34,375 nucleotides of DNA from positions 1 to 34,375 of the forward strand of contig CAZJWT010000001.1 of NCBI GenBank assembly GCA_964550005.1. Direction: 5' to 3'. This document shows, piece after piece, positions 8,976-33,126 of the stretch (within the stretch, counting starts at the first letter, position 1; the number at the start of each line of letters is the position of its first letter). The position numbers and the translations under genes are program-made. The notes below the pieces were generated by a model. The model had not been told where the DNA came from. It saw only the letters and a list, made by a program, of their open reading frames with translations, and ran no database searches. This DNA is from an uncultured Clostridia bacterium (GTDB taxonomy: Bacteria > UBA6262 > WVXT01).

Positions 8976-8993
8976 CCCCGCACCTCCCTATTA

Positions 8994-9028: not shown

Positions 9029-9045
9029 TAACCTCTACTCTTATT

Positions 9046-12812: not shown

Positions 12813-12868
12813 AAACCCTCCCAAATCTTTTACATAATCTGTCTAATGTCGGCCTTCCGCGGGTTTTT

Positions 12869-12889
12869 AGCGAAGCTTCGCTTCGCTAC
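12869..12889 (-). repeat. 14-nt perfect palindrome agcgaagcttcgct abutting a ctac head
   Basis: agcgaagcttcgct + tcgctac. The cta at 12886-88 is the argG stop codon. Confidence 0.7.
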
Positions 12890-14702: not shown

Positions 14703-14928
14703 AAAAGATAGTTTTGAAGAGCTTTAAGGAATTTTAGCCAAAAAACGAGGACAACTGTCATTGCGAAGAGCGGAGCGACGAAGCCCCGATTTATCGGGGC
14801 CACGGGCTTCGCCCTCGCAATGACATTCCGATGATCCCGATTTATCGGGAGAGTTTCGATTTGCGCCCTGCAAAGTCCGAAGTTTTTTGGCGTTAAGAAA
14901 TTCCTCCAGCGAGGAAAAACTATCTTTT
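14703..14928 (+). mobile_element. MITE-like composite element, 226 bp, 13-bp perfect terminal inverted repeats
   Basis: The TIRs are aaaagatagtttt (14703-15) and aaaactatctttt (14916-28). An inner inverted pair is gccaaaaaac (14737-46) and gttttttggc (14882-91). It also contains the 68-nt cattgcga element (14757-14824) and tcccgatttatcggga (14835-50). Confidence 0.75.
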
Positions 14929-14969: not shown

Positions 14970-16157
14970 CTATTTTTTTAGGATTTTATCCAGGGTGTTC
15001 ACTACTCTGTCGGTATCTTTATTGTTAATTATCAGTGGAGGTAAAAATCTCAGAACTCTCTCCTGAGTACAATTGATAAGAATTCCCTCTTCAAAGCACC
15101 TGTTTACAATCTCTTCTCCCTCCTCGTTCAACTCCATCCCCACCATTAAGCCTAATCCTCGCACTTCTTTAATCTTCTCGGGATATTTAGATTTTAATTC
15201 ATTCAGGTGCCTCATAAAATAGTTGCCGGCCACTTTCACATTCTCCAGCAACTTATCGTTCAATAATCTCATTGCTGCCAGTCCTGCAGCGACAGAGACT
15301 GGATTGCCTCCAAAGGTTGAGCCGTGGTTCCCATATCCGAAAAGCTTGGCTATTCCATCCTTAGCGATAGTTACAGCCAGAGGTAACCCACCGCCCAGTC
15401 CTTTAGCCACAGTGAAGATATCAGGAGTTACACCGTAATGCTGATATGCAAACATTTTCCCCGTTCGACCCATTCCTGACTGTATCTCATCAAAAATTAA
15501 GAGGAGTTCAAATTTATTACATAACCTGCGTAATCCTCTGAGGAACTCCCGGGTGGCAACCCGAACGCCTCCCTCTCCCTGAACAGGCTCCACCATTATT
15601 GCGCAAGTATTATTGCCAATCGCTTTTTCGACTGTAGAAAGCTGATTGAACTTTGCCTGCTTAAATCCAGATAATAGAGGAGTAAAACCCTTCTGAAACT
15701 TTTTCTGCCTGGTGGCTGAGAGCGTAGCCAGAGTTCTGCCGTGGAAGGAGTTATCAAAAACAATAATTTTGTATCTATCCTCCCGCTTCCCTCCCTGCAG
15801 ATGACCATACTTTCTGGCAAGTTTTATTGCACATTCGTTGGCTTCTGCTCCACTATTTGAAAAAAAGACCTTGCCCGGAATAGATAATTTCACCAACTTC
15901 TCAGCCAGCTCAACTTGCAGGCGGTCATAGTACAGATTCGAAATATGTAGATGCTCTAAAAGTTGATGCCTTATTGCCTTCAGAATCTGGGGATGGCAAT
16001 GCCCTAAATTATTCACAGACAGCCCACTAAAAAAGTCGAGATATCTCTTGCCTTGCTCGGACCAGATATATTTCCCTTTAGCCTTCTTAACTTCTAACGG
16101 GTAACGTTTATACGTCCCCATAATAAATTTTTTATCTGAAACCATCAAATCTTCCAT
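14970..16157 (-). CDS. argD: Acetylornithine aminotransferase
   Basis: 395 aa class III aminotransferase with NSGAEANE, FDEIQSGMGRTGK and FTVAKGLGGG. It lies within an arg gene set. The start could instead be the second ATG four codons downstream. Confidence 0.85.
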   Translation of the reverse strand: MEDLMVSDKKFIMGTYKRYPLEVKKAKGKYIWSEQGKRYLDFFSGLSVNNLGHCHPQILKAIRHQLLEHLHISNLYYDRLQVELAEKLVKLSIPGKVFFSNSGAEANECAIKLARKYGHLQGGKREDRYKIIVFDNSFHGRTLATLSATRQKKFQKGFTPLLSGFKQAKFNQLSTVEKAIGNNTCAIMVEPVQGEGGVRVATREFLRGLRRLCNKFELLLIFDEIQSGMGRTGKMFAYQHYGVTPDIFTVAKGLGGGLPLAVTIAKDGIAKLFGYGNHGSTFGGNPVSVAAGLAAMRLLNDKLLENVKVAGNYFMRHLNELKSKYPEKIKEVRGLGLMVGMELNEEGEEIVNRCFEEGILINCTQERVLRFLPPLIINNKDTDRVVNTLDKILKK

Positions 16158-16284: not shown

Positions 16285-16493
16285 CCGAGGGACTCCCAAA
16301 ACTATCCTTACATCTTACGGGTTCGATGAATCGAACCCCTACATTAATTGTAGGGGCTCAATTTATTGAGCCCATTCCTTCAATTCCGCGTCATTGCGAG
16401 GAAGCGAAGCGACCGAAGCCCCGATTTATCGGGGCCACGGCTTCGCCTCGCAATGACAGCCATCCGAGAGACTCCGAAAACTATCCCTTCATC
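16285..16493. repeat. REP head-to-head doublet plus 68-nt cattgcga element, bracketed by a ~30-nt imperfect direct repeat
   Basis: The direct repeats are ccgagggactcccaaaactatccttacatc (16285-16314) and ccgagagactccgaaaactatcccttcatc (16464-93). The REPs are 16319-42 gggttcgatgaatcgaacccctac and 16350-73 gtaggggctcaatttattgagccc, with a 7-nt spacer attaatt. The hairpin element spans 16390-16457. Confidence 0.85.
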
Positions 16494-16501
16494 CCAACTA
16501 C

Positions 16502-16642
16502 GGACATAAAGCCCTACACTACCTTGTAGGGGACGGACTCTGTGCCGTCCCTTCCTTCGTCACCCTAAAGGGCGACCAACCTGTCTGGTCGGGCACTATT
16601 TATGGTGCCGTCCTTTGGGCGACCACGGAGTGTCGCCCCTAC
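16502..16642. repeat. Array of five palindromic units
   Basis: The units are ggacataaagccctac (16502-17), gtaggggacggactctgtgccgtccc (16526-51), cttcgtcaccctaaagggcgaccaacc (16555-81), ggtcgggcactatttatggtgccg (16588-16610) and gggcgaccacggagtgtcgcccctac (16617-42). The last overlaps the GT39 stop codon. Confidence 0.9.
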
Positions 16643-18393
16643 GACTCTTTTCTATTTGTCAATACATAGAAGTATTCTCTATGTTTACTCAAAAGAGACC
16701 TCAATCTACCTTCCCGAAATGCCCGAAAAATCTCCTTTGTATTTTTTCTTCCTTTGAAATCATAGGAAAAACTATTTCCCTTTATGGGATAATCTTGCTT
16801 TAAGTTCTCAGGAAGTCTCCTGTATTCAGAATCAGGCAGGATGACAAAGAGAGTCCTCGCTGATGACTTTTCCTTTTCCAGATAATCGTAAGCCAAACCT
16901 ATCCGATCTCCATAGTAGGTTCCATCTAATAACCGGGAAGCGTAGATAGTTAGCCAGACCCTCGGCCCTCTATCAATTCCTATGGTGATAACTCTGTCTT
17001 GGGCTCCAACTTCCTTAAGGTATCTTAAGCCCAGCTCCCTCCAGGGCACAGGTACTGTTGAGGGAAAAATTCCTCCAATAAAAATAAAAGCAACTGTCAC
17101 CATTGTGCAGGCTATTGTCGGTGGAATTGGCAAGAAGATTTGCCTCTTGTAGAATTTTACGAGAAGAATACTTCCTCCCAGTAAAACTATAAATGACAGT
17201 ATAGAAAATATGAAACCATAACTACCGAGTGAATAGATAACAAAAGTTAGGAAGAGCGTAAATAAGGCTAAAATTATGAATAATGACAAAATAGACAGGA
17301 CGAATATTTTGAAAATTCTACTCTTGAAAGCACCTCGCTCCTCAATTCTCACCAGATATTCACCACTGAGGAGGGCTAAGGCTGGGGAGAGGGGAAGCAA
17401 GTATCTGGAATGGCGAGAGGAAACAAAAAAAGTAAACATCCCAAACGTGACAGCCAACCAGAGAAATAGGAATAGAATTTCGTTTCTATTTTTCTCCTTT
17501 CTTTTGGTTGACAGAATACCAATCAGTAGGAGAATTGACCAGGGGAAAAAATGTCTTACCATTGTACCTGAATAGTAACCAATGTTAGAAAATATACCTG
17601 TGGAAGCCCTGTTGACCCTACTAAGCAATTCCCCAAAAAAGAAGCAATTCATGAATCTATCTCCATGTAGAAGATACATTGCCAGGGGCCAGGGAATTAC
17701 TATCAAGAGGAAAAAAATGAATGGCCAGGGAGTGAAGATATCTCTTAAAGCCAATCTATTCTTTGGAAAAACCGACAAGAATATTATTATAGATATAAAG
17801 GGAATCAAAAAACCAGCAGGACCTTTCGTCATTGTAGCCAGCCCCATGGCTATAAAGGAGAAAATAAAGTATGAACGCCGATTCTTTTCTTCAAAAAACC
17901 CTTTCGCAAAAAAGAGCATTGAAAGGATTATAAAAAAGGTGAGCACCATATCGGTCCTTGCAGCTCGCGCGTCAAGGAAATAGAGCGAACTGGAAAGTAG
18001 AGCAAGTGAGGAGAAGAGTGCTCCCTTGTAATTACCGAAGAGAATCAGTGAGAAATAGTAAATGAGTAGTATACCAGAAGTAGCAAAAATAACAGATGGC
18101 AAGCGTCCGGAAAATATGTTAACTCCAAAAATCTTAAAAGAAAGAGCAACAAGCCAGTAGAATAGTATCGGCTTCTGGAACCTTAATTCCTGCCCCTCAA
18201 AGACTGGCGTTATCCAATTGCCGGTCTTAACCATGCCTAAGCAGGAACTGAGATAGTAAGTCTCATCGCTTTGATAAGTGGTTATCTCTGAAAGACCTGA
18301 GGAGAATAAAACAAAAGATGCTAAAGCAAGAATAAAATATATTTCCTTCCCTCTAATAGATCTCAAGAGCTTTATTTTTAAGTTCATCAGCAT
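16639..18393 (-). CDS. GT39/ArnT-like polyprenyl-phosphate-sugar-dependent glycosyltransferase (PMT_2 family integral membrane protein)
   Basis: 584 aa with many predicted TM helices. The N-terminal region has the ...QKPILFYWL... loop typical of ArnT/PMT-type transferases. It is downstream of a GT2 polyprenyl-phosphate glycosyltransferase. Confidence 0.7.
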   Translation of the reverse strand: MLMNLKIKLLRSIRGKEIYFILALASFVLFSSGLSEITTYQSDETYYLSSCLGMVKTGNWITPVFEGQELRFQKPILFYWLVALSFKIFGVNIFSGRLPSVIFATSGILLIYYFSLILFGNYKGALFSSLALLSSSLYFLDARAARTDMVLTFFIILSMLFFAKGFFEEKNRRSYFIFSFIAMGLATMTKGPAGFLIPFISIIIFLSVFPKNRLALRDIFTPWPFIFFLLIVIPWPLAMYLLHGDRFMNCFFFGELLSRVNRASTGIFSNIGYYSGTMVRHFFPWSILLLIGILSTKRKEKNRNEILFLFLWLAVTFGMFTFFVSSRHSRYLLPLSPALALLSGEYLVRIEERGAFKSRIFKIFVLSILSLFIILALFTLFLTFVIYSLGSYGFIFSILSFIVLLGGSILLVKFYKRQIFLPIPPTIACTMVTVAFIFIGGIFPSTVPVPWRELGLRYLKEVGAQDRVITIGIDRGPRVWLTIYASRLLDGTYYGDRIGLAYDYLEKEKSSARTLFVILPDSEYRRLPENLKQDYPIKGNSFSYDFKGRKNTKEIFRAFREGRLRSLLSKHREYFYVLTNRKES

Positions 18394-19383: not shown

Positions 19384-19497
19384 TTGTAGGGGACGGACTC
19401 TGTGCCGTCCCTAGCGGGTGGCCACCCCGATATATCGGGATAAACTGCGTGCCACCCCTACAGGGCCACCATCCCGATACATCGGGATCGCCCCTAC
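19384..19497. repeat. Array of three REP units filling the GT2-argB gap
   Basis: The 29-mer ttgtaggggacggactctgtgccgtccct (19384-19412) is identical to 16524-52. A 46-nt two-stem unit spans 19416-61. A shortened variant at 19462-97 has a ctac that contains the argB stop. Confidence 0.9.
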
Positions 19498-20285
19498 TTT
19501 ATGATTTTGGTTCCTCCCAATTTCATCCGCTTTTCAAGAAGAGGCAACAGAGCATCTTTTTTTCGACCATCAAGGATATTTATTTCCTTTACACCTTTCC
19601 TAAGCGCCTCAGCACAGGAATCTATCTTGGGAATCATTCCTTCAGTAATGGTTCCCTTCCTTGCCAGCTTCTCAACCTCTTCTATTCTTATCTCTTTAAT
19701 TACAGACTTCTCATCTTTAGGATTTTCCAGAATGCCTGGCACATCGGTTAGGAAGAATAACCTTTCTGCTCCGATAGCAGCTGAAAACTGGGCTGCAAAG
19801 ATATCGGCATTGATGTTATAAGTCACCCCTCTTCTATCCATAGCCGTAGAAGAGATAACCGGGATGAACCCGTTATCCAAAAGGACGTACATAATTTCAG
19901 GATTTACTCTCTCCACTTCAGCCACATATCCGAGGTCGTGTCTTCCTTCTATCTTCTTCGCTTCCACTAAAAAACCATCCTTCCCTGAAATGCCCACAGC
20001 CCTCCCTCCCAAAAGATTAATCCTTCCCACTATCCTTCGGTTAATCCCTGCCAGAACCATCTCCACAATTTCCAGGCTTTCAGCATCTGTGTACCTTTGC
20101 CCTTTTACAAATCTCGGCTTCTTTCCCAAAATATTCAGTTTTTCAGTAATTTCCAGCCCGCCTCCATGAATGACGACTGGATGTTTTAGTCGTTTTGCCA
20201 GCGAGATAATATTCTTGAGGTGACTATCCATCACCGGTCCTCTCAAAAGTTTCCCGCCAATCTTTATTACTAACAACTCTTTCAC
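19494..20285 (-). CDS. argB: Acetylglutamate kinase
   Basis: 263 aa with VIKIGGK, VIHGGG and NINAD motifs. The GTG start at 20285 overlaps the comEC TGA by 4 nt (GTGA). Confidence 0.9.
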   Translation of the reverse strand: MKELLVIKIGGKLLRGPVMDSHLKNIISLAKRLKHPVVIHGGGLEITEKLNILGKKPRFVKGQRYTDAESLEIVEMVLAGINRRIVGRINLLGGRAVGISGKDGFLVEAKKIEGRHDLGYVAEVERVNPEIMYVLLDNGFIPVISSTAMDRRGVTYNINADIFAAQFSAAIGAERLFFLTDVPGILENPKDEKSVIKEIRIEEVEKLARKGTITEGMIPKIDSCAEALRKGVKEINILDGRKKDALLPLLEKRMKLGGTKIIK

Positions 20286-22630
20286 TGCTTCCCCCCTCTC
20301 ATTGGTTCAATCTGGAATGACTTCCCATCAGTTCTTATGACGATAGCACCATTATTAGAAGTAGAGAAAAATCCTATTTTATTATACTTCTCTTCCAATT
20401 TTCTAACCCGGAATTTAGTTGATATTATACCATATTTCGGCGCCACTTTATATAGAAATTTTGGAGCTACCCGGCCTCCACCATGATTGGGTATCTGCAG
20501 AATATCACTTTTAATATCTTCTCTCTCTAACTCATCCTGTACATCATAATCGATATCTCCTGTGAATAGAATTGCAAAATTTCCATAGCTCACCTTGGTA
20601 ACCAGAGAATTACTATCAATATTTTCTCTCATAATCGTGGGATTTAAGATGTGAAATCTTACAGCATTATATTCAACCTTTTCACCATAAGCTATATATT
20701 TCAAGGGAATCCTTTTCTCTCTGATAATCTGAAGGAACTCCTCAAAAGCGTCGTCATCATAATTTTGACCATTATAGTATACCCTTTTCACCTTAAATTT
20801 TTTTAGAACTGAAATCAAACCTCCTATATGGTTATAGTGGGGGTGAGTCAAAAAGATAGTATCTATCCTGGAGACGCCATTTTTCAATAAATAAGGAATT
20901 ACCACTTTCTCCCCTATATCAAATTTTCCTATTACCCCGCCCCCGTCTATCAATATGTCCTTCCTGTCAGGCAGTCTGAGGTGAATCGCATCTCCCTGTC
21001 CCACATCCAGAAAAGTAATGGTTAGTTTGTCCGAAGGGACTATTTTCAAGCCGGCTACCGAAAATATAATGAGAAGTGGGAAAAAGAGAATGAGTCTACG
21101 TACTGAACGGGAAGATTCCATTTTCGGTAGAAAAGAGAAGAAAAGATAGTAAGATAAGATAAATATGCAGGAAGGATTCACGACATATTTTACTGAGAAG
21201 GGTAACGAAGCAAAAAATCGAATAGATTGGAATAGAACTATTACAAATAACCTGTTAACTGTGTTAACCGCCTGGGCGAGCCCTAAGGAGAAAAGGCCCG
21301 CTATCGATGAGGCAAATCCCAGGGCTGTGATTACACCAACCTGAGGAACAACCACAATGTTGGAGAGTAGAGCAATTAATGAAATCTTATTGAAGTAGAA
21401 GGCAGTTATGGGATAGACACCAACCAATGCTCCAGCAGAGACTGCCAGTGAACCTAAAATGTAAGTAACGAGCTTATGAGGTTTGCTCAAACGAAAATGA
21501 CTCTGGAAATAGGGAGTGAGATAGAGAATCCCTAAAGTCGCCATAAATGAAAGCTGAAAACCCACATCAAAGAGGGTAAAGGGATTCCAGATTAAAATAA
21601 TCAGGGCAGCTAGGGTCAAGCTATTATAAAGATGTTTATCCCTATCGAGGAGGAATGCCACTAACCCGCAGATAGCCATAATTGATGCCCTTGCCGCGGA
21701 AGGAGGATTGCCGACTACCTGAGCAAATATTATGACTACCAGTATCGTTAAAAGATAGGTTACCCTCTTGGGAATCCCGATTCCCCGAAAGAACCCATAA
21801 AATATGAACAGAACCAAGCCTACATTTAGCCCGCTTACTGCAAGTATATGAAGCACTCCGGCATCAGCAAACATCTCTTGAATATCCCTGGGCAGGTCGC
21901 ACCTCTCTCCCAATATCAGTCCTGCGAGAATCGAAGATTCCAATTGGGGGAGGGTGCTCTTAATAACAAAATCTATTTTTCGTCTAATTTTTGAGATGAG
22001 CGAAGGAAAGAAGCCCATTTCTGCCTGGCCGAACCTTTCAATATCTCCACTATCATAGACAGAAAAGAGCGAATGGATATTTCGATAGCTCAAATACCTC
22101 CTATAGTCGAATAGCCCGGGATTAGCTGAAGCAGGGGGAAGGGAGAGTCTGCCTGAGAGACTCACGCGGTCTCCATAATTTATCTCGGCTGGCACGGAAG
22201 TGTAGAGAAAGACTTGCGTTTTTCCTCTTACTTCTATTTCTCTCTTATCAGTGGTTAATCTCTGGCAGGCTAAGACAAAATCGACCCTTTGCGAGGACTT
22301 ATTAGGAATTGAAACTACAACGCCTCTGAGCCGACTTCTCTCCTGAGTTGGAAAAGAGATGTAGTGGCTTATCTCGTTAGGAGGGATATGGTGAGCTCCC
22401 AGATGCCGGGCAATTCCCAAAGAGAGGAACGCCAAAAAGAAAAAGATTAAACCGATGTTTCCTGGACTTCGCTGAAGAATGAAATAGAAAACTGAAGCCA
22501 GAATAAAAAGACTTAAGAAGATTATTAGAAACCAGAAATATTTAGCTTCTATGAAGAAATTGCCGAGAAGAATTCCCAAAATATATCCGATTACAGTTAA
22601 GAGGAGTGGCGTGAAACTAAATTTCCTCAT
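20282..22630 (-). CDS. comEC: DNA internalization-related competence protein ComEC/Rec2 (N-terminal DUF4131-like region, polytopic competence domain, C-terminal metallo-beta-lactamase domain)
   Basis: 782 aa. The N-terminal TM helices are followed by an OB-like segment and about 8 further TM helices. The C-terminal domain has ITFLDVGQGDAIHL, LTHPHYNHIGG, FTGDID and IPNHGGG. Confidence 0.88.
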   Translation of the reverse strand: MRKFSFTPLLLTVIGYILGILLGNFFIEAKYFWFLIIFLSLFILASVFYFILQRSPGNIGLIFFFLAFLSLGIARHLGAHHIPPNEISHYISFPTQERSRLRGVVVSIPNKSSQRVDFVLACQRLTTDKREIEVRGKTQVFLYTSVPAEINYGDRVSLSGRLSLPPASANPGLFDYRRYLSYRNIHSLFSVYDSGDIERFGQAEMGFFPSLISKIRRKIDFVIKSTLPQLESSILAGLILGERCDLPRDIQEMFADAGVLHILAVSGLNVGLVLFIFYGFFRGIGIPKRVTYLLTILVVIIFAQVVGNPPSAARASIMAICGLVAFLLDRDKHLYNSLTLAALIILIWNPFTLFDVGFQLSFMATLGILYLTPYFQSHFRLSKPHKLVTYILGSLAVSAGALVGVYPITAFYFNKISLIALLSNIVVVPQVGVITALGFASSIAGLFSLGLAQAVNTVNRLFVIVLFQSIRFFASLPFSVKYVVNPSCIFILSYYLFFSFLPKMESSRSVRRLILFFPLLIIFSVAGLKIVPSDKLTITFLDVGQGDAIHLRLPDRKDILIDGGGVIGKFDIGEKVVIPYLLKNGVSRIDTIFLTHPHYNHIGGLISVLKKFKVKRVYYNGQNYDDDAFEEFLQIIREKRIPLKYIAYGEKVEYNAVRFHILNPTIMRENIDSNSLVTKVSYGNFAILFTGDIDYDVQDELEREDIKSDILQIPNHGGGRVAPKFLYKVAPKYGIISTKFRVRKLEEKYNKIGFFSTSNNGAIVIRTDGKSFQIEPMRGGKQ

Positions 22631-23851: not shown

Positions 23852-23950
23852 CTCTTTTGAACTCCTCCCCACTCCTCTCCCCAAAGGGGAGAGGGACAGG
23901 GTGAGGGGTTTAATCCTCTCCCCCATGCGCAAAGGTTTCTCTTTTTGAAC
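23852..23950 (-). repeat. 'ggggagagg' palindromic element (inverted copy) flanked by an 11/12-nt direct repeat
   Basis: cctctccccaaaggggagagggacagggtgagggg (23875-23908) is the inverted form of 14603-38 and 27273-27306. The flanks are ctcttttgaac (23852-62) and ctctttttgaac (23939-50). Confidence 0.75.
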
Positions 23951-24028: not shown

Positions 24029-25222
24029 CTAATATTGAACTCTTACGGCTACAACTATTCTGGTCAGTGTCTCATCTATTCTCTGACGCTCCTCAAAGAA
24101 GGTGGCATCACCATAATAATTCCTTTTGCCGAACTCCCCGGCAAAATCGAAAGATACTATATTGTTAAATTTATATCCCAGCCCTCCCGTAAAGGAGACC
24201 ATCTGAAATTCTTTACTACCATAAAAGGGTTGAAAATGGAAACCATATCTTAAAGAAAGAGCATCTGACAGATAGTGCTCTGCACCAATACGAAATTCAA
24301 AGGTATCACCGTAATTAGATCCTGATTCAAATCCCGACCATTCACTAAAGATGAACTCAGCCGCTATGGTAGAAGAGATTTCGTCAACGAAATTATAAGC
24401 CACACCAAAGCCATACGATAGGGGAAATTTTAGCTCTTTCCTGCCTTCTTTTGTCGACGTAGAGTAGTTCACTTTCCATCTATCCTCGACTTTTCCTCTT
24501 GTCTTAACAATAAATCCAGCTCTAAACTCATCGGAGAAGCAGAGCATCCCTCCCAGCGTGAAATTAAGACCAGAACTCTTTGATTTGAGCTCGGTAACGG
24601 AGGCGGGAGGAGAAGCATAAATAGTGCATCTATTTTTGAGACTTCTTTCTCCATACAGAAGGTTAACAGTCCCACCCATACATAAATATGGCGTGAGCTT
24701 CCATGCTCCTCCTAAGCTATAGCCATAGAGGCTTCCTTCTCCACTTATGCTGGCAGAGCCAATTTTCTCACCCGGCGAATCTGCGTCAAAGATGGATTTC
24801 TCATGCTCGTAATGGTTGTCGTATAAGGAGACAAGTCCTAAAGCCAGCACCCATTTTCTTCTGACCGGAAAAGCAAGAGTAGCACTATTGAGTTGAAAAT
24901 AGCACTGAGAATTAAAATACGTCAATTCATCTTCTGTAATCACCTTTTCTACAACCGGCGCTATTCCCAAAGCTAATGAAAGTTCGTTCTTTTTCAAAAC
25001 CCCGAGACATGAGGGATTTACAAATATAGAAGAAGAATCGGTTGCACTGGCAATTGATGTTCCTCCCATTCCCATGCAGCGAGCCCCAATTCCAGAAATG
25101 GGATCTCCTAAGCGAGAAACTCCCAGATAAGTAAGCGCATCAACTTTTGAAGCCAGAAAACAGAGAATAGTAACTACTACAAAAACAATTCTTTCTTTGT
25201 TCACCTTTCCTTTGTAACCCAC
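24029..25222 (-). CDS. Outer-membrane beta-barrel protein, FadL/PorV-like family
   Basis: 397 aa with a signal peptide (...LASKVDA/LT). The N-terminal plug-type motif GIGARCMGMGGTSIASATDSSSIFVNPSCLG resembles the FadL/TodX/PorV G-x-GAR-x-GMGGA...NPAGL signature. It shows an alternating beta-strand pattern and a C-terminal aromatic (…VRVQY). The start codon is uncertain (GTG 25222 or GTG 25204). Confidence 0.65.
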   Translation of the reverse strand: MGYKGKVNKERIVFVVVTILCFLASKVDALTYLGVSRLGDPISGIGARCMGMGGTSIASATDSSSIFVNPSCLGVLKKNELSLALGIAPVVEKVITEDELTYFNSQCYFQLNSATLAFPVRRKWVLALGLVSLYDNHYEHEKSIFDADSPGEKIGSASISGEGSLYGYSLGGAWKLTPYLCMGGTVNLLYGERSLKNRCTIYASPPASVTELKSKSSGLNFTLGGMLCFSDEFRAGFIVKTRGKVEDRWKVNYSTSTKEGRKELKFPLSYGFGVAYNFVDEISSTIAAEFIFSEWSGFESGSNYGDTFEFRIGAEHYLSDALSLRYGFHFQPFYGSKEFQMVSFTGGLGYKFNNIVSFDFAGEFGKRNYYGDATFFEERQRIDETLTRIVVAVRVQY

Positions 25223-25246: not shown

Positions 25247-27250
25247 TCACCACTTCACATCCCATTGTAAACTGAACACATGTCTTCTGCTTCCGATTAT
25301 TTTATCTAACTCTTCTTTATTTTCCGGCCTGCTTATCCCATAATCATTGTAATAGTGTGTATTTTCATATTTCATCCAGAGGCTGGTGTTTTTAGTAATC
25401 CCTTGCGTTACCATTAAGTAGTATCTTACACCTTTGCCATAGGTCCACCAATGGAAAGGAGTCAAACCCATAGGCCATAAAAATTCAATTTCGCTCAAAG
25501 CAACTCCTGGGTCAGCCTCGAAAAAGATCAGCCTCCCTTCAAGATTCAACCTAACAGTTGGACTGTACCTGAGGTCACCAAAAATTAAGTATCCTCTATC
25601 CACTTGCTTGAGCTCATAAATACTGTTCTTTCTCTCATCCCACCTTACCTTAAACCTCACCCTGCCATCCGGATTCCAAGTAACCTGCACTCTCGTCTTC
25701 TTCCAGCTCTGGCATAAATCTCTATTTTCTACCTTTTTATCATACCAGTGGTCCCATTTCCTAAAATATATTTCCAGCTTCCTTGATACTCTCTGTCTAA
25801 CATCAAACCAGAATTCCTTATCTGTGGTTGGCATTAAATTATCCTCTCTCCAAGGATGGCGAACAGGTCTAAAATAGATTTGCACTTCCCTCTCTCTATC
25901 CTCATACTTACCACCAAGGAATATTCCATTCTCATTCCAGCCTTCATCCCTCCGTCCAACTATAGTGGTAGCACTACTATGTTCGTTATAGTAATCTGGG
26001 TCATATTTATAAATAGTCATCCATAAAGTAAAGCTGCTTAATTTGAGCATAGGCTGCATCATCCACGCCTCACCATAACCTACGCACTTAGCATATTCGG
26101 CGAAGAGATTCAATTTTCTATACCAAGTATCAAAATCGAACCCGAAAATCCTGTTTCTATTTCCTCGAAATAGATAGTATCCTTTCTCTTCCGGCGGATT
26201 AATCCCAGGGCTATATTTGCTCTCATAACCGATAAAACCAATCTGTGAATCTCTTAAAAAATTATAAGCCACTCTACCGCCAATCAGTTTCTCAGTCAAC
26301 TTGTTATTTCTCTCCAGTTCTTTATCACTAGTAACATAACCCATATTCGCTCTAATAGCAATTAAGCTCTCCTTCACAGTACCATCCGGATTCAAGGATG
26401 CATCGAGCTTCTTATTCGAATAGAAGAAATCAAAGTCGAACTGTTCTATTTTCTTTCTTATCGCCAATCCTCTGAAATAAGTATTTGGTGTTGTCCCTCC
26501 ATCTGCTGCAATACCTTTAGCTTCAATCTTTACTGATCTGGTTAATTCTATTGCCAGAGGATAATAGAAGATTAATCCCTGATTATATTGAAGCTTGTAA
26601 TCGCCAATGACTATCTTATCAGTGGAATGAACATCTTGCATTACAAACCAGTATTTGGTCAAATAGTATTTCCAGAGATTATGAAAATTAATTGTAGGTT
26701 CCGAACCGCTGTCTGACTGAGCGCCCCCGTGACGAAGGACCCAACCGGCTTCATAGTGGCTTCCATATCTTAACCTCGTGCGATTATAGAGATATGCGGG
26801 ATTTTGAAATTTAGGGTCAGCATCAAAATAAGCTTCACTATCCGGCTTATCCAGCTTAATTCTCCACCGGAAATCACCGTGGAGGGCTACGGGAATTCCT
26901 TTTAGCTCAACCCTAACATAAGGAGCTATTCCCTCAAATATCTCATCATTCACTCCTGGCACATCCTTAACTTCCTCAACATCTGTAAATCCTCTCTGTT
27001 CACGATAGATAATAATCGCCCTTGCCAGGCGAGAATCAATTAGAGGAAGCTTCAACAATTGGTCAAAAGAGACAGTATTTAAGTCGAGTGGATAGTCTTT
27101 CAAATCAGCAAGCTCTTCCTTATCCACTGCCCCAGGGAATACTGTCTCGGCTTCATCCTCTTCAAATTCGACCTGACCCACCACTGCCGCAGGCAGATTA
27201 GCCAGCAAGAGTATGTACAAAGCGAGACGAATAGCGGTAATTCTTGTCAT
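25247..27250 (-). CDS. Exported helix-hairpin-helix (ComEA-like) DNA-binding domain fused to a large predicted outer-membrane beta-barrel
   Basis: 667 aa with a signal peptide (…LPAAVVG/QVEF). A ComEA-type HhH module (LDLNTVSFDQLLKLPLIDSRLARAIIIYREQRGFTDVEEVKDVPGVNDEIFEGIAPYV) is followed by about 540 aa rich in amphipathic beta-strands and aromatic girdle residues. It ends ...FSLQWDVKW, an OMP beta-signal-like terminus. Confidence 0.6.
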   Translation of the reverse strand: MTRITAIRLALYILLLANLPAAVVGQVEFEEDEAETVFPGAVDKEELADLKDYPLDLNTVSFDQLLKLPLIDSRLARAIIIYREQRGFTDVEEVKDVPGVNDEIFEGIAPYVRVELKGIPVALHGDFRWRIKLDKPDSEAYFDADPKFQNPAYLYNRTRLRYGSHYEAGWVLRHGGAQSDSGSEPTINFHNLWKYYLTKYWFVMQDVHSTDKIVIGDYKLQYNQGLIFYYPLAIELTRSVKIEAKGIAADGGTTPNTYFRGLAIRKKIEQFDFDFFYSNKKLDASLNPDGTVKESLIAIRANMGYVTSDKELERNNKLTEKLIGGRVAYNFLRDSQIGFIGYESKYSPGINPPEEKGYYLFRGNRNRIFGFDFDTWYRKLNLFAEYAKCVGYGEAWMMQPMLKLSSFTLWMTIYKYDPDYYNEHSSATTIVGRRDEGWNENGIFLGGKYEDREREVQIYFRPVRHPWREDNLMPTTDKEFWFDVRQRVSRKLEIYFRKWDHWYDKKVENRDLCQSWKKTRVQVTWNPDGRVRFKVRWDERKNSIYELKQVDRGYLIFGDLRYSPTVRLNLEGRLIFFEADPGVALSEIEFLWPMGLTPFHWWTYGKGVRYYLMVTQGITKNTSLWMKYENTHYYNDYGISRPENKEELDKIIGSRRHVFSLQWDVKW

Positions 27251-27272
27251 CGGTACTGATCAGGCACTCTCT

Positions 27273-27502
27273 CCCCTCACCCTTTCCCTCTCCCCGGGGG
27301 GAGAGGAGAGAAATAAGAAGTCAAGCTTCCACTATCTTCGTCACCCTGCCCCGTCCCGAAACCGGAACGGGGTCGGGAAAGGGTGACCAACCACGCGTAG
27401 GGGCGACCCTTGCGGTCGCCCATTGGTCGGGCACTCTTTAGAGTGCCGTTTCTGGTCGGGGGCACCATTTACCTGTCCTGAACATAGCCGAAGGATGGTG
27501 CC
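27273..27502. repeat. Array of palindromic units between the PorV-like gene and the HhH-barrel gene
   Basis: The units are cccctcaccctttccctctccccggggggagagg (27273-27306), cttcgtcaccct[30-nt insert]aaagggtgaccaacc (27336-92), gtaggggcgacccttgcggtcgccc (27397-27421), ggtcgggcactctttagagtgccg (27425-48) and ggcaccat...atggtgcc (27461-27502). Confidence 0.88.
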
Positions 27503-27537
27503 GGTGTAAAAAAGTAGCTTGTCCCCTTTTCGCGCGA

Positions 27538-28416
27538 TTAATCTTGCTTAGTCACGCCGCCGGAGTGCAAAGAAAGAGAAAATTGGTGCTGCCCACTTAG
27601 GAAAGGATGGCTCAAGAATGCGTAATCGAATTCGAATATGTTCCAGCGAAAGCCAAAACCTGCGCTAACTCTCGCTGGGTCGTTCTCTACCCCGACCCGC
27701 AAGATAAAATTTCTACTAAGGGTAGCCTCAAAACCAGCTCTTATCTCAGGTTCAACCTTTGCTGAACTCATTGGTAGATACAAATCGAGAGAGGTAATGT
27801 AACCAGAAAGAGGCTGAAAAAAAGCCCCCACCTTAATTGTCTGGGCTAAATTTTCCGGGGAGTTACCGAGTCGGGGACCGTTCAGGTTCATTGCCATAAT
27901 CCCCAACCTGAACTTAGAACTAATATCGGCAAGAGTTCCCATATCCAGACCGAAAGCGGAAGCCTTACCATAAGTAGAATTTACGCTGGCTCCCTTAATC
28001 TTTAGACTCATAATTTTGACATTGAAACCGAAATATATCCCACTCCCCAAACTCTGCCCGCAAGAAAAAATAGTCTGACTCTCTCTATATTCTGAACACC
28101 CAAACTGTGAATATGAGAATCCAAAGGCTCCCACCTTTTTAGTAGGGATCACTCCACCAAAAAGATAATATCTCAAATCTTTTAGGCCGAAAAGCTGAGT
28201 AGTCACTCCCATGGCTTCTACTTCTTTGACCAGTTCCAATCCAGCCGGGTTCCAGTAGATAGCATTAACATCATCAGCCACACCCGTAAACGCTCCTGCC
28301 ATCCCCATTGGACGAGCCCCCGCTCCCTTCTCCTCAAAAGCCCCGTAACTGGGCGAAAGGGTGAAAAAATAGAAAAGTGAAAAGGCAAAAAGTAATAGAA
28401 AGGCTTTTCTTACCAT
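27538..28416 (-). CDS. Outer-membrane beta-barrel protein, PorV/FadL-like (UPF0164-like) family
   Basis: 292 aa with a signal peptide (…SPSYG/AFEE) and the motif GAGARPMGMAGAFTGVADDVNAIYWNPAGL. The start lies 4 nt after the stop of the CTD-bearing protein upstream. Confidence 0.65.
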   Translation of the reverse strand: MVRKAFLLLFAFSLFYFFTLSPSYGAFEEKGAGARPMGMAGAFTGVADDVNAIYWNPAGLELVKEVEAMGVTTQLFGLKDLRYYLFGGVIPTKKVGAFGFSYSQFGCSEYRESQTIFSCGQSLGSGIYFGFNVKIMSLKIKGASVNSTYGKASAFGLDMGTLADISSKFRLGIMAMNLNGPRLGNSPENLAQTIKVGAFFQPLSGYITSLDLYLPMSSAKVEPEIRAGFEATLSRNFILRVGVENDPARVSAGFGFRWNIFEFDYAFLSHPFLSGQHQFSLSLHSGGVTKQD

Positions 28417-28420
28417 ATCT

Positions 28421-29320
28421 CTATCTAAGTTTTCTTCCTACTATGATTGTTTCCGTTCCTTTGGTTACCTTTCCTGTATTTTCGTTCAGTGCCTCAATGT
28501 GACAAATATATATTCCAATTGGCACGATTGTGCCTCCAGACTCATCCGTGCCATCCCAGGTTACAGAGCCTTCCCCATCAATGTCTACCTCCTGGTCAAT
28601 CAACACTCTAACTAACTTTCCCCTGACATCAAAAATTCTTAAGGTAATTCTTGAACCATCCGGGACATTATATTTTATCTTTCCCTCAGTTGGTCTACCG
28701 CTTATATCGCTGTACGGAAAAAATGGTGAATCACTTACTTCCATTGTCTTTGTGGTAGGCTCCTCCTCGTAAACAGGTCTTGGGATTGGGAGTATACGGA
28801 CGAAAGATACATCATCAACATAAAAGGTTCTCTCTCCACAAGCTCCGGTGCCAGAAACCCAAACTCTTACATTGGCGGAGTTAGCATTTGGAGGCGCGAG
28901 AATTTCGCCTGTTGTCAGTTCCTGGTAGGAAGAACTATCGAGGGAAGGTAAAGACTCTCCTTTGTCAATAGAACTTCCGCTTCCATCATTAGAAGTATAC
29001 CAGTAGACTCTAATTGTGACTTCGCCATCTGGCTCGTTGTCATAAACCCATAGGGAGGCACCATAAGTCTCCCCGGGTGAAATTGTGATTCCCTTCTGCT
29101 GAATATATCCATAACCCGTCCCAGCATCGAAGAGTTTAGCTGCAAATGAGTCACTTCGCACAGGTGAATCTACCACACACCATTCCTTCAAACCCCACTC
29201 ATTCCAGTAGTTGGTAGTCCCGGACTCCAATCCTCCGTCAATAATTAACCCATCACCCCATGCAACGCCGACAGATAAAAAAAGAATCCCAATCGATTTT
29301 AAAATCACAAGTTTTCTCAT
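28421..29320 (-). CDS. Secreted protein: CBM4/9-like jelly-roll domain plus C-terminal FlgD-Ig/T9SS type-A sorting-like domain
   Basis: 299 aa with a signal peptide (…VGVAWG/DG). The N-terminal domain starts IIDGGLESG...NYW and ends FYVDDVSFV, a CBM_4_9-like pattern. The C-terminal ~85 aa (KIKYNVPDGSRITLRIFDVRGKLVRVL...VTWDGTDESGGTIVPIGIYICHIEA...) matches the FlgD-Ig / Por-secretion-tail pattern. Confidence 0.6.
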   Translation of the reverse strand: MRKLVILKSIGILFLSVGVAWGDGLIIDGGLESGTTNYWNEWGLKEWCVVDSPVRSDSFAAKLFDAGTGYGYIQQKGITISPGETYGASLWVYDNEPDGEVTIRVYWYTSNDGSGSSIDKGESLPSLDSSSYQELTTGEILAPPNANSANVRVWVSGTGACGERTFYVDDVSFVRILPIPRPVYEEEPTTKTMEVSDSPFFPYSDISGRPTEGKIKYNVPDGSRITLRIFDVRGKLVRVLIDQEVDIDGEGSVTWDGTDESGGTIVPIGIYICHIEALNENTGKVTKGTETIIVGRKLR

Positions 29321-29368: not shown

Positions 29369-30028
29369 CTACCACTCCTCACTTTCTTCTTGTGACATTG
29401 CTTCGTATTTGGTCAATAATAACTTCTCAATACTCTTTTTGATTCTCTCATCATAAATATAAATCTGCTTTACCCAGCTACCTCTCCCTTTTTCAGGTGG
29501 CCTCGATGGCCAGGCAATCCAGGGCCCCCTCTTACCTTCCATTATTCCACAGGAGACAGCCACCGCATTATTAAAGGTAATTTCCACATTAACTTTCCTT
29601 TTTCCAGCTCCCCTCAGCCTGAACCAATCCGTAACTTTGAAAGACACCTGTTCAAGCTTTTCTTGAGACGGCTTTCCTGTCTCAATTGCTTTCACTATGG
29701 CATCTCCTACTTCTTCTTTGAGGAACTTTATTTGAGGATAGACAATACCTCTCTTGCTAATGTATTCGGGAAACTTTAATACTGTCCTATTGTCACCCTT
29801 CATCACCTTAATTTCTCTCACCACTATACATTCATTGAGCATCACTTTAGCAACTCCAACCACTCCTTGTTCAGCCTCAACTGGCTCCACTTCAACTCTT
29901 GTAACACTGATAGTCTCCAGGGACTCCTTCTTCTTTTCTGCTCCCGCCACTGCTGAAGAGAGTATAACAATCAGCAAGGCTGCAACAAACAAACCCGCCC
30001 ATCTTCTTATAAGTTTTTTACAAACCAT
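29369..30028 (-). CDS. Exported protein with two tandem SpoVG-like domains
   Basis: 219 aa with an N-terminal signal peptide or anchor (WAGLFVAALLIVILSSAVAGA/EKK). Two segments each follow the SpoVG pattern (MxVTDVRLRxV..G..kA.AsITLD..FVVHDIRVI.G..GlFVAMPS....G.....hPI....R..I..avL..Y). They are ISVTRVEVEPVEAEQGVVGVAKVMLNECIVVREIKVMKGDNRTVLKFPEY... and FKVTDWFRLRGAGKRKVNVEITFNNAVAVSCGIMEGKRGPWIAWPSRPPEKGRGSWVKQIYIYDERIKKSIEKLLLTKYE. The assignment is by eye and needs HMM or structure confirmation. Confidence 0.5.
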   Translation of the reverse strand: MVCKKLIRRWAGLFVAALLIVILSSAVAGAEKKKESLETISVTRVEVEPVEAEQGVVGVAKVMLNECIVVREIKVMKGDNRTVLKFPEYISKRGIVYPQIKFLKEEVGDAIVKAIETGKPSQEKLEQVSFKVTDWFRLRGAGKRKVNVEITFNNAVAVSCGIMEGKRGPWIAWPSRPPEKGRGSWVKQIYIYDERIKKSIEKLLLTKYEAMSQEESEEW

Positions 30029-30111: not shown

Positions 30112-30687
30112 TCACCAACTTTGACTATTCTTGGTTGATGGGGGACATTCGGATTTAATTCTAATGAACTCTTTGAGAAAAAATTTGGCAAGGGGGATGG
30201 AATCTATGAGGACGGAAGCTTCGTTATTCTTTTCCAATGCATGGTAGCCCCAGTTGGTGCTGCCAATTACCGTGTATCTTTCGTCTACTATGATGAGCTT
30301 ATTGTGAGTGGTTGTTGTGAGGGAGTCGAAATATACCTTGATACCAGCTTTTGAAAGCATAAATCCTCCCTCTTCTCTGTTTCTTATGGTAACTTTTTCC
30401 ACAGTGCCTTGTTCCAAAATTACTTCTACATTTACTCCTCTTTTATGAGCATCTATCAAATCTTGAACCAACTGGTTTTCCAGGCTTGAAGGATACTTTG
30501 GATAGTAGAACATTTCAAACATTACTATATAGATAGATTTTTTGGCTTGCTTTAAGAGGTTATGGACTGCTGGGTGGTATAACTTATTGGGAATCGGCTT
30601 CACATCTTTTGCCGGGAGGGCGAAAACAATCTGTAAAGATAATGAAAAGATCAAAACAGCAATTAGTATGTATCTCCTGACTTTCAT
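30112..30687 (-). CDS. Secreted phospholipase D-family protein, Nuc-like single-HKD endonuclease
   Basis: 191 aa with a signal peptide (…LQIVFA/LPAKD) and one HKD motif, HNKLIIVDERYTVIGSTNWG. Size and architecture resemble the periplasmic Nuc nuclease of IncN plasmids. A lipid substrate cannot be excluded from sequence. Confidence 0.65.
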   Translation of the reverse strand: MKVRRYILIAVLIFSLSLQIVFALPAKDVKPIPNKLYHPAVHNLLKQAKKSIYIVMFEMFYYPKYPSSLENQLVQDLIDAHKRGVNVEVILEQGTVEKVTIRNREEGGFMLSKAGIKVYFDSLTTTTHNKLIIVDERYTVIGSTNWGYHALEKNNEASVLIDSIPLAKFFLKEFIRIKSECPPSTKNSQSW

Positions 30688-31470: not shown

Positions 31471-31720
31471 AAAGATAGTTTGTGAAGAGCATTGGGAATT
31501 TTAGCCAAAAAATGAGGACGGCTAACCCTCTTCCAAGCAAAAATTTGTTCGACTCCCGCTCTGCGGGAAGAGTTTATTTTTGCGCCTTGCAGAGTCGTTG
31601 CGAGGAAGCGAAGCAACCGAAGCCCCGATTTATCGGGGCCACGGCTTCGCCTCGCAATGACATCTTAGTGAGCGAACCAAATCCCAAGCATATTTCCTTA
31701 GTGATGAACAAACTATCTTT
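31471..31720 (+). mobile_element. MITE-like composite element, 250 bp, 13-bp perfect terminal inverted repeats
   Basis: The TIRs are aaagatagtttgt (31471-83) and acaaactatcttt (31708-20). It contains ggaattttagccaaaaaatgagg, gagtttatttttgcgccttgcagagtc and the 67-nt cattgcga-type element (31595-31661). The modules match 14703-14928 but occur in a different internal order. Confidence 0.75.
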
Positions 31721-31760: not shown

Positions 31761-33014
31761 CTAAAAATAGCCGGGCTCTACAAATCCCGCTTCAGTTCCT
31801 TCAGGGGTCAATCTCAGGGAGCCGAACTGGATTGTTCTAATCTTCTCCTTCTCTCTTACTGGAGTAAATATTCTTATTCTTCTTCCTTTATAATCTATTC
31901 TATCAATAATTCCTATCCCCAGAACTTCACCCAGCGAATCCAGAAGTCCTATAAGTAGGTTCTTTTCATTACCAGCAATGATATTTCTTAGATTGGAAGC
32001 TCCTGCTTCCCTCTTTACTATAATGGATTCTTCCTCAGACAATGGCTCCTCTGTTACCACGAAAACTCCTTCCCAACCTGAAAGTCTCTCCGCCCAAAGA
32101 TACTGGATACCTTCCAATTTGATTTCTTTACCCGTTTTGAAATAGGCACGGTCTGTTTGAACTTCATCCAGGTCCAGTTCTATATAACCGGCTTCTTTGA
32201 AATACTTTTTATACATCGTTTCGCGTAGCCCCTTCCTCTCCTCGTGGTTTCTCGGCAAGGGACCCTTGCTAACAAGTAAGTGGACGATTTTCTCCCGGGG
32301 ATAATTTTTGACCAGATGTTCCAGCTCGTCGCCTCTCTGGAGCAAAATGATTGCATCCGGGCTCAACATCTCTATTTCTGAGCGGTGGAGAGCACGGGCT
32401 TTCTCTCCCTGCACCCAGCCAGGTGTATCAATGATAAGTATATCGGCAAGAGTTAGTCCGCAGTCAACTAATTTTTTGAGCCCAACGAGTGAAGGAAGAA
32501 AATGGAAGGCAGGAGAGTTCGAGCCGGTAAAATAGAGGGCGGTTGGCTCTACTTCACTCGGAAAGACTATCTGCCTGTCTAAAACTGCCAGCCCTATTGT
32601 TCCCGGCGGACCGATGTCGCTCTGACCTGTATCACAATCGAGAATTCCTACTCTTAATCCGTGAGTCAGAAGTCTATTGGCTAAATAAGTCGAAAAGAAA
32701 GTCTTTCCAGTGTCTATCTCTCCCAAAATTAGAATTACCCTCGCTCCCTGTTTACTTAACTGCCCAGCTAACCTATCCCAGGGATCGGGAATCGTGCGCT
32801 CGGATAGGTGTTCTCTTTCTCCACCCTCCTCAAAATCTAAGGTCAATTCACCATCTACTATCGTCTCTACTGGTATAGACTTTCCCCTCGGAATCGTAAC
32901 TTGGTCAGGATTTTCCAGAGTTTTTGCTACTGCCTCGAACTTACCTTTATTAATTTTAAGGAGGCAGGGGCCCTTAAATAAGTAGATGTTTCCTTTATTC
33001 AATTTCAAATTCAT
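31761..33014 (-). CDS. Clp1/Grc3-family polynucleotide 5'-hydroxyl kinase homologue
   Basis: Start trimmed to ATG 33014 (MNLKLNKG...), because the 28 upstream codons of the track ORF are repeat-derived. P-loop GEIDTGKTF is followed by ILDCDTGQSDIGPPGTIG (the Clp1 DxDxGQ motif) and IIDTPGW. The N- and C-terminal beta domains resemble archaeal Clp1. Confidence 0.65.
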   Translation of the reverse strand: MNLKLNKGNIYLFKGPCLLKINKGKFEAVAKTLENPDQVTIPRGKSIPVETIVDGELTLDFEEGGEREHLSERTIPDPWDRLAGQLSKQGARVILILGEIDTGKTFFSTYLANRLLTHGLRVGILDCDTGQSDIGPPGTIGLAVLDRQIVFPSEVEPTALYFTGSNSPAFHFLPSLVGLKKLVDCGLTLADILIIDTPGWVQGEKARALHRSEIEMLSPDAIILLQRGDELEHLVKNYPREKIVHLLVSKGPLPRNHEERKGLRETMYKKYFKEAGYIELDLDEVQTDRAYFKTGKEIKLEGIQYLWAERLSGWEGVFVVTEEPLSEEESIIVKREAGASNLRNIIAGNEKNLLIGLLDSLGEVLGIGIIDRIDYKGRRIRIFTPVREKEKIRTIQFGSLRLTPEGTEAGFVEPGYF

Positions 33015-33045
33015 GATGGTTGCGGCAATTCTAAAGCAGAGAGTT

Positions 33046-33126
33046 GAGCAACCCTGAAGGTCACCCCTACGCCACCTGAGATTTTGGGCGGCGGTCAAAG
33101 CAAAAAATCACTCTGACCCCTTTTTT
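33046..33126. repeat. Decayed REP head plus two short shared modules
   Basis: gagcaaccctgaaggtcacccctac carries the ctac head with a weak stem. gagattttgggcggcggtcaaagcaaaaaatc resembles 9180-9213. caaaaaatcactctgacccctttttt resembles the reverse complement of 5461-85. Confidence 0.65.

Follow-up and report, generated by a model that had tools for sequence, protein, structure and literature searches.

The type IV pilus DNA-uptake route of Vibrio, Neisseria, and Thermus combines the PilQ secretin with free ComEA, and to our knowledge the crossing of the outer membrane by DNA is understood only for such pilus/secretin systems and for Helicobacter ComB. Among outer-membrane systems built from more than one barrel, PorV has a FadL-type fold and docks on the SprA barrel; we know of no helix-hairpin-helix (HhH) module in the SprA–PorV or BamA–BamG systems. 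Free ComEA has been proposed to act as a DNA ratchet below PilQ (PMC8459023). Riemerella anatipestifer (RA0C_RS04915/04920) and Bacteroides thetaiotaomicron (DdbC–DdbD) each possess a TonB-dependent-type barrel paired with a DUF5689 lipoprotein (PMC8459023, PMC12478041), and a study of Porphyromonas gingivalis describes as unknown how DNA crosses the outer membrane without type IV pili (PMC11532111). The ComEA proteins of Riemerella and P. gingivalis, RA0C_RS02645 and PGN_0421, are needed for transformation. BamG, a FadL-fold barrel, binds laterally to the BamA barrel and provides the anchor for BamH, an extracellular lipoprotein (PMC12611786), and PorV and PorP-like proteins serve as shuttles or anchors for type IX cargo (PMC12618676). 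Here we analyze a gene that encodes a ComEA-type HhH module followed by a predicted outer-membrane β-barrel (the HhH-barrel) in a 34,375-nucleotide stretch of DNA from an uncultured bacterium (contig CAZJWT010000001.1 of assembly GCA_964550005.1, positions 1 to 34,375; hereafter the window). We tentatively favor, as something short of an even chance, a multi-barrel outer-membrane complex with periplasmic DNA-binding tethers that functions in DNA uptake. What is new here is a putative receptor of ComEA type that would form part of a multi-barrel unit in the outer membrane; the family itself is already present in the databases, its barrel without a domain model.

Architecture and predicted topology of the HhH-barrel

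A preliminary description, made from the sequence alone, had read the gene at 25247-27250 (minus strand) as a ComEA-like HhH module fused to a large putative barrel, in an operon with a FadL/PorV-like barrel. This architecture is borne out: the open reading frame (ORF) is as described, and a 397-aa ORF at 24029-25222 (minus strand) begins 24 nt downstream of it in the ORF listing. The HhH-barrel gene and its encoded segments are as follows.

25247-27250, minus strand: HhH-barrel gene, 667 aa, ATG start (ORF listing; full-length and distant homologues).
27176-27250, minus strand: signal peptide, aa 1-25 (sequence reading; likely cleavage between ...AAVVG and QVEF).
27104-27175, minus strand: acidic, disordered linker, aa 26-49 (predicted local distance difference test score, pLDDT, <50 at residues 15-46).
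26906-27103, minus strand: ComEA-type tandem HhH module, aa 50-115 (Pfam, PDB matches, model helices, hairpin motifs).
25250-26890, minus strand: predicted 24-strand outer-membrane β-barrel, aa 121-667 (structure models, Foldseek, loop pattern, C-terminal motif).
26300-26587, minus strand: loops L3 and L4, aa 222-317 (between model strands 5-6 and 7-8).

The signal peptide reads MTRITAIRLALYILLLANLPAAVVG and is likely cleaved before the Gln that follows, Gln26, which is nearly invariant in the family alignment. The ComEA-like nature of the HhH module is confirmed by a match of residues 55-113 to Pfam HHH_3 (PF12836; E=8e-13, 48.7 bits versus a cut-off of 27). As a single-sequence query, the same residues match crystallized ComEA sequences (8dss, E=2.6e-5; also 8dfk and 2duy), and these PDB matches improve to 5e-15 and 6.6e-14 when the family profile is used as query. 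All PDB matches of the family profile fall on the HhH module and extend to the HhH-like domains of GspK and PsbU. The two NCBIfam ComEA models TIGR01259 (28.2 bits versus a cut-off of 152.35) and TIGR00426 (26.2 bits versus 53.1) score the HhH-barrel below their cut-offs. In the AlphaFold2 (AF2) model, the module forms helices at residues 62-65, 73-85, 91-96, and 102-111.

The large barrel proposed for the C-terminal part is likewise confirmed. An AF2 model of the HhH-barrel computed from 19 homologues shows 24 long strands in residues 123-666 (pLDDT 77.6; predicted template-modeling score, pTM, 0.73), and a model of a 22-25% identical Bacteroidota relative computed from 115 homologues also shows 24 strands (pLDDT 88, pTM 0.84), with a similar loop pattern in both. 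Foldseek searches of the PDB with both models returned large outer-membrane barrels only (E 1e-8 to 1e-10, template-modeling (TM) scores 0.3-0.46), namely, TonB-dependent transporters, FimD/PapC ushers, AlgE, and MtrB, at 6-12% identity. A soluble β-propeller or β-sandwich, an outcome that, like a failed HhH profile search, would have contradicted the preliminary description, is ruled out by the two models and the Foldseek results, and the HHH_3 match stands. The outer-membrane-type terminus noted earlier holds as well: the protein ends in ...LQWDVKW, and the family consensus Q-h-[DER]-x-x-[FWYLI] is a typical β-signal of the β-barrel assembly machinery (BAM). No Pfam or NCBIfam model covers residues 120-667, and a family-profile search of the PDB found no related solved structure for the barrel part. 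As judged from the models, the fold class is clear, yet no known barrel family fits.

The connections between strands allow the barrel to be oriented. All eleven even-numbered connections are short (2-5 residues in the HhH-barrel and 2-6 in the relative), and long connections, of up to 37-39 residues, occur at odd positions only in both models. By the standard rule for outer-membrane proteins, short turns are periplasmic and long loops external; both termini of the modeled barrel should therefore be periplasmic. Only 7-12 residues separate the HhH module from strand 1, and the module is therefore expected to be turned toward the periplasm or to close the pore mouth from below, not to sit on the cell surface. 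DNA binding by the HhH module at the outer face of the membrane is thus not favored, because the loop lengths place it on the periplasmic side. A classical autotransporter, with an N-terminal passenger and a C-terminal barrel, is ruled out by 24 rather than 12 strands, by the 7-12-residue linker in this branch, and by the pattern that predicts a periplasmic N terminus.

Invariant residues of the family are packed most densely in loops L3 and L4 (aa 222-317), with the conserved motifs QYNQGLIFYYP...R..K...G...D.GT.PN.YFRG and FYSNKKLDA.LNPDGT. Such conservation is unusual for external loops, which suggests that L3/L4 turn inward and constrict or gate the lumen. By a crude register assignment, the putative lumen-facing strand positions hold 21 Arg in the HhH-barrel (net +8) and 20 Arg in the Bacteroidota relative (net +11); the lumen of AlgE is also arginine rich, and that of the HhH-barrel would recall it. 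Across the family, the barrel is more strongly conserved than the HhH module. These features bear on an alternative in which the protein is an outer-membrane-anchored ComEA, its HhH module binding periplasmic DNA, and its barrel merely an anchor or an unrelated porin, with DNA entering by a TonB-type transporter or a pilus. The predicted periplasmic orientation of the HhH module fits this arrangement, as does the implication of a different outer-membrane pair in DNA passage in Riemerella and B. thetaiotaomicron (PMC8459023, PMC12478041). We nevertheless consider it improbable, since 24 strands, a conserved L3/L4 region, and conserved lumen arginines exceed what an anchor needs, and since the barrel is better conserved than the module that it would be anchoring.

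Family distribution and the small-barrel partner

A profile search of 1.84 billion representative sequences (clusters at 50% identity) retrieved 3,503 proteins at E<=1e-30, most of them 600-700 aa long and matched over their full length. Among 167 homologues, 134 carry one HhH module before the barrel, 20 carry two, and 13 carry none, some of the last being fragments; the HhH-before-barrel layout is thus shared by 154 of 167, which rules out a chance or assembly fusion. The fusion singled out in the preliminary description is therefore the standard form of a very large family (3,503 clusters) and not peculiar to this genome. Family members are found in KSB1, Ignavibacteriales/Ignavibacteria, Elusimicrobiota, and many Bacteroidota (Pontibacter, Rufibacter, Aureispira, Draconibacterium, Bacteroidales, and Crocinitomicaceae). 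Database names are generic, either "helix-hairpin-helix domain-containing" or "ComEA family" protein, and Bacteroidota members of ~690 aa carry the label "ComEA family DNA-binding protein". Literature searches for the HhH-barrel fusion found no paper that describes this architecture.

The closest relatives, 66-93% identical, derive from sediment and subsurface metagenome-assembled genomes (MAGs) labeled Clostridia, Firmicutes, or simply bacterium, and a metagenome scan returned close relatives only (66-91% identity). The Clostridia and Firmicutes labels appear doubtful because the outer-membrane gene content points to a diderm envelope. One MAG, WJOT01, contains two contigs (L003 and L008) with an HhH-barrel/FadL-like/FAH/ComEC block at 82-84% identity to the window, which suggests a strain mixture or a duplication in the bin.

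Comparison of loci across phyla brings out a second barrel, encoded directly upstream of the HhH-barrel gene, that in some lineages carries HhH modules of its own.

27538-28416, minus strand: small PorV/PorQ-like barrel, 292 aa, with signal peptide (NCBIfam PorV_fam, NF033709, E=1.4e-22).
Small barrels with C-terminal HhH fusions in other loci: L010, 494-2230; L011, 6128-7963; L012, 4519-5625; L046, 3213-4481.

The 292-aa small barrel scores 80.7 bits against the NF033709 cut-off of 90, and its Bacteroidota counterparts score 44-67 bits. The gene directly upstream of the HhH-barrel encodes a small barrel in the window, in four Bacteroidota loci (Aureispira, Draconibacterium, Rufibacter, and a Bacteroidales MAG; small barrels of 269-284 aa), and in loci L010 (Endomicrobiia), L011, L012, and L046; in three of the four Bacteroidota loci, the small-barrel gene overlaps the start of the HhH-barrel gene. 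Judged by gene order, the most conserved partner of the HhH-barrel is this upstream small barrel and not the downstream FadL-like gene.

The small barrels of L010, L011, L012, and L046 continue at their C termini into a long basic linker followed by one or two HHH_3 modules (Pfam E of 2e-32 and 5e-38 for the two proteins scanned). The hairpins of these modules are canonical (IPGIG/LPGIG), e.g., IPGIGALTAQRIIDYR. HhH modules have thus been added to two distinct barrels, N-terminally in one and C-terminally in the other, and both of these ends are predicted to be periplasmic. In L012, the big barrel (P0019) lacks an HhH module and its small barrel carries one, and at least one HhH module is found in every locus in which both barrels were observed. 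This complementary pattern speaks for two barrels that act jointly, in a unit that requires HhH modules in the periplasm.

The downstream barrel and exported neighbors

The genes on either side of the two barrels encode a third barrel and two exported proteins.

24029-25222, minus strand: FadL/BamG/PorV-superfamily barrel, 397 aa, with signal peptide (Pfam, NCBIfam).
28421-29320, minus strand: secreted 299-aa protein with an N-terminal β-sandwich resembling carbohydrate-binding module (CBM) family CBM_4_9 and a C-terminal immunoglobulin (Ig)-like domain.
29369-30028, minus strand: 219-aa exported protein carrying a pair of SpoVG domains behind a signal peptide or anchor (two Pfam SpoVG stretches, E=1.2e-15).

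The FadL-like character assigned earlier to the downstream barrel is upheld by Pfam Toluene_X (PF03349; E=3.8e-11, 42.6 bits versus a cut-off of 29.7). The same protein matches the BamG model NF053685 (E=4.8e-22, 78.6 bits versus a cut-off of 250), as a relative and not an orthologue, and PorV_fam (E=1.8e-12, below cut-off). A FadL/BamG-like barrel of 395-420 aa follows the HhH-barrel in the window clade and in L009 (Ignavibacteria), L010, L011, L012/L013, and L046; no such gene was found directly downstream of the HhH-barrel in the Bacteroidota loci.

The 299-aa protein matches CBM_4_9 (E=2.4e-7) and, at its C-terminal end, FlgD_ig (E=7e-6, 26.3 bits versus a cut-off of 27); its C terminus scores 12.2 bits against Por_Secre_tail (cut-off 27) and weakly matches the PorU and PorZ C-terminal domains. 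The Ig-like domain resembles the C-terminal domains of type IX secretion, and the protein is likely a surface protein retained by a PorV-like barrel. Proteins that combine a β-sandwich with a type IX-like C-terminal domain also precede the small barrel elsewhere, the sandwich being a lamin-tail domain (LTD) in L011, L012, L014, and L046. A hint from iterative searches that the 299-aa protein is an orthologue of these LTD proteins was rejected on direct comparison, in which only the C-terminal Ig-like domain is common.

SpoVG is normally a small cytoplasmic nucleic-acid-binding protein, and both the SpoVG and the LTD families are associated with nucleic acids. Proteins of 200-224 aa with a signal peptide and tandem SpoVG domains are encoded near the HhH-barrel in L011 (2154-2822), L012 (583-1185), and L014 (6481-7155) as well. 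In two Bacteroidales-type loci (L016, 11855-13582; L048, 10087-11811), recJ, which encodes a single-strand DNA exonuclease, lies a short way downstream of the HhH-barrel gene, in the opposite orientation.

This neighborhood can also be read without any role for DNA. The HhH module would then be a diverged structural or docking domain, and the barrels would anchor or secrete surface proteins or polysaccharide, as a system related to the type IX or BAM-accessory machineries of the FCB (Fibrobacteres–Chlorobi–Bacteroidetes) group. The partner barrels do belong to the PorV/PorQ and FadL/BamG superfamilies, the adjacent proteins with type IX-like C-terminal domains reproduce a known cargo-plus-shuttle gene arrangement, and the window surface protein looks carbohydrate binding; to these may be added the polysaccharide exporter AlgE among the fold matches, the profile matches to HhH-like domains of GspK and PsbU that are not taken to bind DNA, and the missing hairpin glycines of the HhH-barrel and of many Bacteroidota members (see below). 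The HhH modules of the small barrels, however, are canonical ComEA-type modules with intact G-I-G hairpins, LTD and SpoVG neighbors recur across phyla, and duplication on flexible basic linkers, at one barrel or the other, is not what a purely structural domain would lead one to expect. On balance we regard a system without a DNA role as rather unlikely, and it is the rival that we take most seriously.

ComEC, a nuclease-like protein, and other features of the window

Two further genes of the window encode proteins of DNA-related families.

20282-22630, minus strand: full-length ComEC/Rec2 with DUF4131, Competence, and metallo-β-lactamase domains, two genes downstream of the FadL-like gene.
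30112-30687, minus strand: secreted phospholipase D (PLD)-family nuclease-like protein, 191 aa, NucT/Nuc-like (Pfam PLDc_2 1.1e-24).

The ComEC assignment is supported by NCBIfam ComEC_Rec2 (E=1.3e-76, above cut-off) and Pfam Competence (E=1.1e-57). The PLD protein matches NCBIfam NucT below cut-off (E=6.8e-14), and a resemblance to DrmC of DISARM is subthreshold. In the window clade the gene order is fixed: PLD nuclease, SpoVG protein, CBM/C-terminal-domain protein, small barrel, HhH-barrel, FadL-like barrel, FAH hydrolase, and ComEC. Because these genomes are close relatives, the fixed order says little, and it is the cross-phylum comparisons that are informative. ComEC adjoins in 16 of the 18 close-clade loci and was not seen at distant loci within flanks of 8-10 kb where the contig allowed; the position of the PLD gene is conserved only within the window's own clade. 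The ComEC stop overlaps by 4 nt the start of an argB-like amino-acid kinase gene (19494-20285, minus strand), and arginine-biosynthesis genes lie further downstream (14970-16157, 12886-14112, and 11460-12824). From this overlap and these downstream genes, ComEC appears to be co-transcribed with housekeeping biosynthesis genes.

The direction of transport is a separate matter. An architecture with an HhH module on the periplasmic side of a barrel could work either way, and DNA bound in the periplasm might instead be released through the barrel or packed into vesicles, for example, for a biofilm matrix. We hold such export or vesicle loading to be very improbable: no linked gene for bringing DNA to the periplasm is present, and a secreted nuclease, surface β-sandwich proteins, and ComEC fit import better.

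Between the small-barrel and HhH-barrel genes lies an unusually structured intergenic region.

27251-27537, no strand: 287-nt spacer filled with GC-rich palindromic repeats resembling repetitive extragenic palindromic (REP) elements, four in all.

This spacer is ~250 nt longer than that of the relative L002 (~35 nt). REP-like repeat families are shared with other intergenic regions of the window, e.g., 4498-4533, 14769-14850, 16390-16646, 19384-19487, and 31594-31662. A 23-nt inverted pair, GGGGAGAGGGACAGGGTGAGGGG, at 23886-23908 and 27273-27295 (96% complementary) brackets the HhH-barrel and FadL-like genes and possibly represents copies of a dispersed repeat. Elsewhere, runs of the 7-nt tandem unit AAATTTC at 7933-8069 and 8977-9045 flank dapA intergenically, and a 445-aa protein encoded at 31761-33098 (minus strand) matches Pfam CLP1_P (E=2e-37), the P-loop domain found in Clp1 polynucleotide kinase of the eukaryotic/archaeal type. 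Scanning the window for Rfam families and tRNAs gave no matches, and promoter and terminator scans gave no signal above background.

A possible outer-membrane route for DNA

We return to the proposal of a multi-barrel complex with DNA-binding tethers. It is favored because the HhH module is of ComEA type and is joined to a barrel the size of an usher pore, for which Foldseek gives only transport-type matches; because the loop pattern places the N terminus in the periplasm and the lumen positions are arginine rich; because independent canonical ComEA-type fusions occur on the partner barrel in a complementary HhH pattern; because the small/big-barrel pair is conserved from the window clade to Bacteroidota; because nucleic-acid-associated SpoVG and LTD neighbors recur across phyla, with a nuclease and ComEC added in the window clade; and because the outer-membrane DNA step of P. 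gingivalis has been called unknown (PMC11532111). The suggestion in the preliminary description that DNA is bound at, or passed across, the outer membrane in another way thus survives as the best-supported reading, by virtue of the context in other phyla; it does not follow from the window gene alone.

As a working model, the HhH-barrel would be exported via its signal peptide and inserted in the outer membrane as a 24-strand barrel, with a single ComEA-type HhH module predicted to hang into the periplasm, attached to strand 1. Conserved gene order, together with the domain fusions, suggests that the big barrel works with the upstream small PorV/PorQ-like barrel and, in the window lineage, gene order suggests that it also cooperates with the downstream FadL/BamG-like barrel. 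By analogy with SprA–PorV and BamA–BamG, the small barrels may attach laterally to the big barrel and retain extracellular proteins, in this case the CBM-like protein with its type IX-like C-terminal domain. The domains present point to a polyanion as cargo, most plausibly DNA. Extracellular DNA might be captured at the surface and cross the arginine-lined 24-strand pore gated by L3/L4; the barrel-tethered HhH modules could then catch it in the periplasm, like the ComEA ratchet below PilQ, and it could go from there either into transformation, by way of ComEC, or into nutrition, by way of nucleases. The more specific proposal, that the HhH-barrel and its PorV/PorQ-like partner form a pilus- and secretin-independent DNA translocon that supplies the missing outer-membrane uptake step, for transformation or food, in Bacteroidota, Ignavibacteria, KSB1, Elusimicrobiota, and related uncultured lineages, is one that we put forward as doubtful.

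Several observations weigh against DNA uptake by this route. The G-h-G hairpins of ComEA-type HhH modules touch the DNA backbone, and hairpin 1 of the HhH-barrel reads LPLID instead of LPGIG, both glycines being lost and the second replaced by Asp; hairpin 2, VPGVN, retains one Gly. The motif is also missing in many Bacteroidota members of the family and is retained in deeper family branches and on the partner-barrel modules. Because the glycines are lost here and in many Bacteroidota, the barrel-proximal module may no longer bind DNA and could be structural. The linkage to ComEC and the PLD gene is clade restricted and provides no independent evidence, and the sandwich of the window surface protein is CBM_4_9-like and not an LTD. 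In the two Bacteroidota studied, the outer-membrane DNA step has been assigned to the TonB-type/DUF5689 pair (PMC8459023, PMC12478041). In the HhH protein that emerged from a Riemerella transposon screen (RA0C_RS02645), the position of the HhH (236-301) does not fit that of the family, in which the module is N terminal (50-125), and neither does its position in PGN_0421 of P. gingivalis (94-165).

Thousands of generically named proteins nonetheless constitute a concrete and genetically testable candidate for the outer-membrane DNA step. If the proposed complex takes up DNA, phyla dominant in gut, soil, and sediment communities would possess a new machine for DNA uptake at the outer membrane, which would matter for horizontal gene transfer and for the use of DNA as a nutrient; should the HhH module not bind DNA, a new conserved two- or three-barrel outer-membrane complex would still be at hand.

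Comparison with known systems

Like ComEA, the HhH-barrel is exported with a tandem HhH module that belongs to the same Pfam family, spans ~65 residues, and is predicted to be periplasmic. Unlike ComEA, which is small and soluble or anchored in the inner membrane, this module is the N terminus of a predicted 24-strand barrel of 547 residues, and by curated score, hairpin motif, and architecture the HhH-barrel is not a ComEA. The proposed logic, an outer-membrane pore over a DNA-binding HhH ratchet, is that of PilQ plus ComEA, although the HhH-barrel would be monomeric rather than a multimeric secretin and would unite pore and HhH module in one polypeptide. A secretin identity is ruled out, as no secretin domain was matched in the HhH-barrel or elsewhere in the window, which also contains no pilus genes.

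Strand numbers are 22 for TonB-dependent transporters, 24 for the PapC/FimD ushers, 26 for MtrB, and 18 for AlgE. The HhH-barrel is similar in size to these large monomeric transport barrels, which are its best Foldseek matches, and differs from them in having no plug, usher, or other known Pfam domain in its barrel. A TonB-dependent transporter is ruled out by the lack of any Plug or TonB_dep_Rec match (Pfam, NCBIfam), by the 24 strands, and by the N-terminal HhH module, and a chaperone-usher protein of the PapC/FimD kind by the lack of an usher Pfam match, the fold similarity being generic (TM ~0.3). With the DdbC–DdbD and RA0C pairs, the HhH-barrel system shares a pilus-independent outer-membrane barrel plus a surface-exposed binding protein, proposed to carry DNA through that membrane in the FCB group, and nucleases encoded nearby; it differs from them in its 24 strands, in the absence of a Plug/TonB-receptor match, in its HhH module, and in its PorV/FadL-like partners. 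Finally, the pairing of a large barrel with a small one of the FadL/PorV kind also characterizes SprA–PorV and BamA–BamG. The partner barrels of the window match the BamG and PorV models at E 1e-12 to 1e-22, all below the family cut-offs, and are thus relatives and not orthologues, and the big barrel, unlike those of the two known systems, is neither SprA nor BamA.

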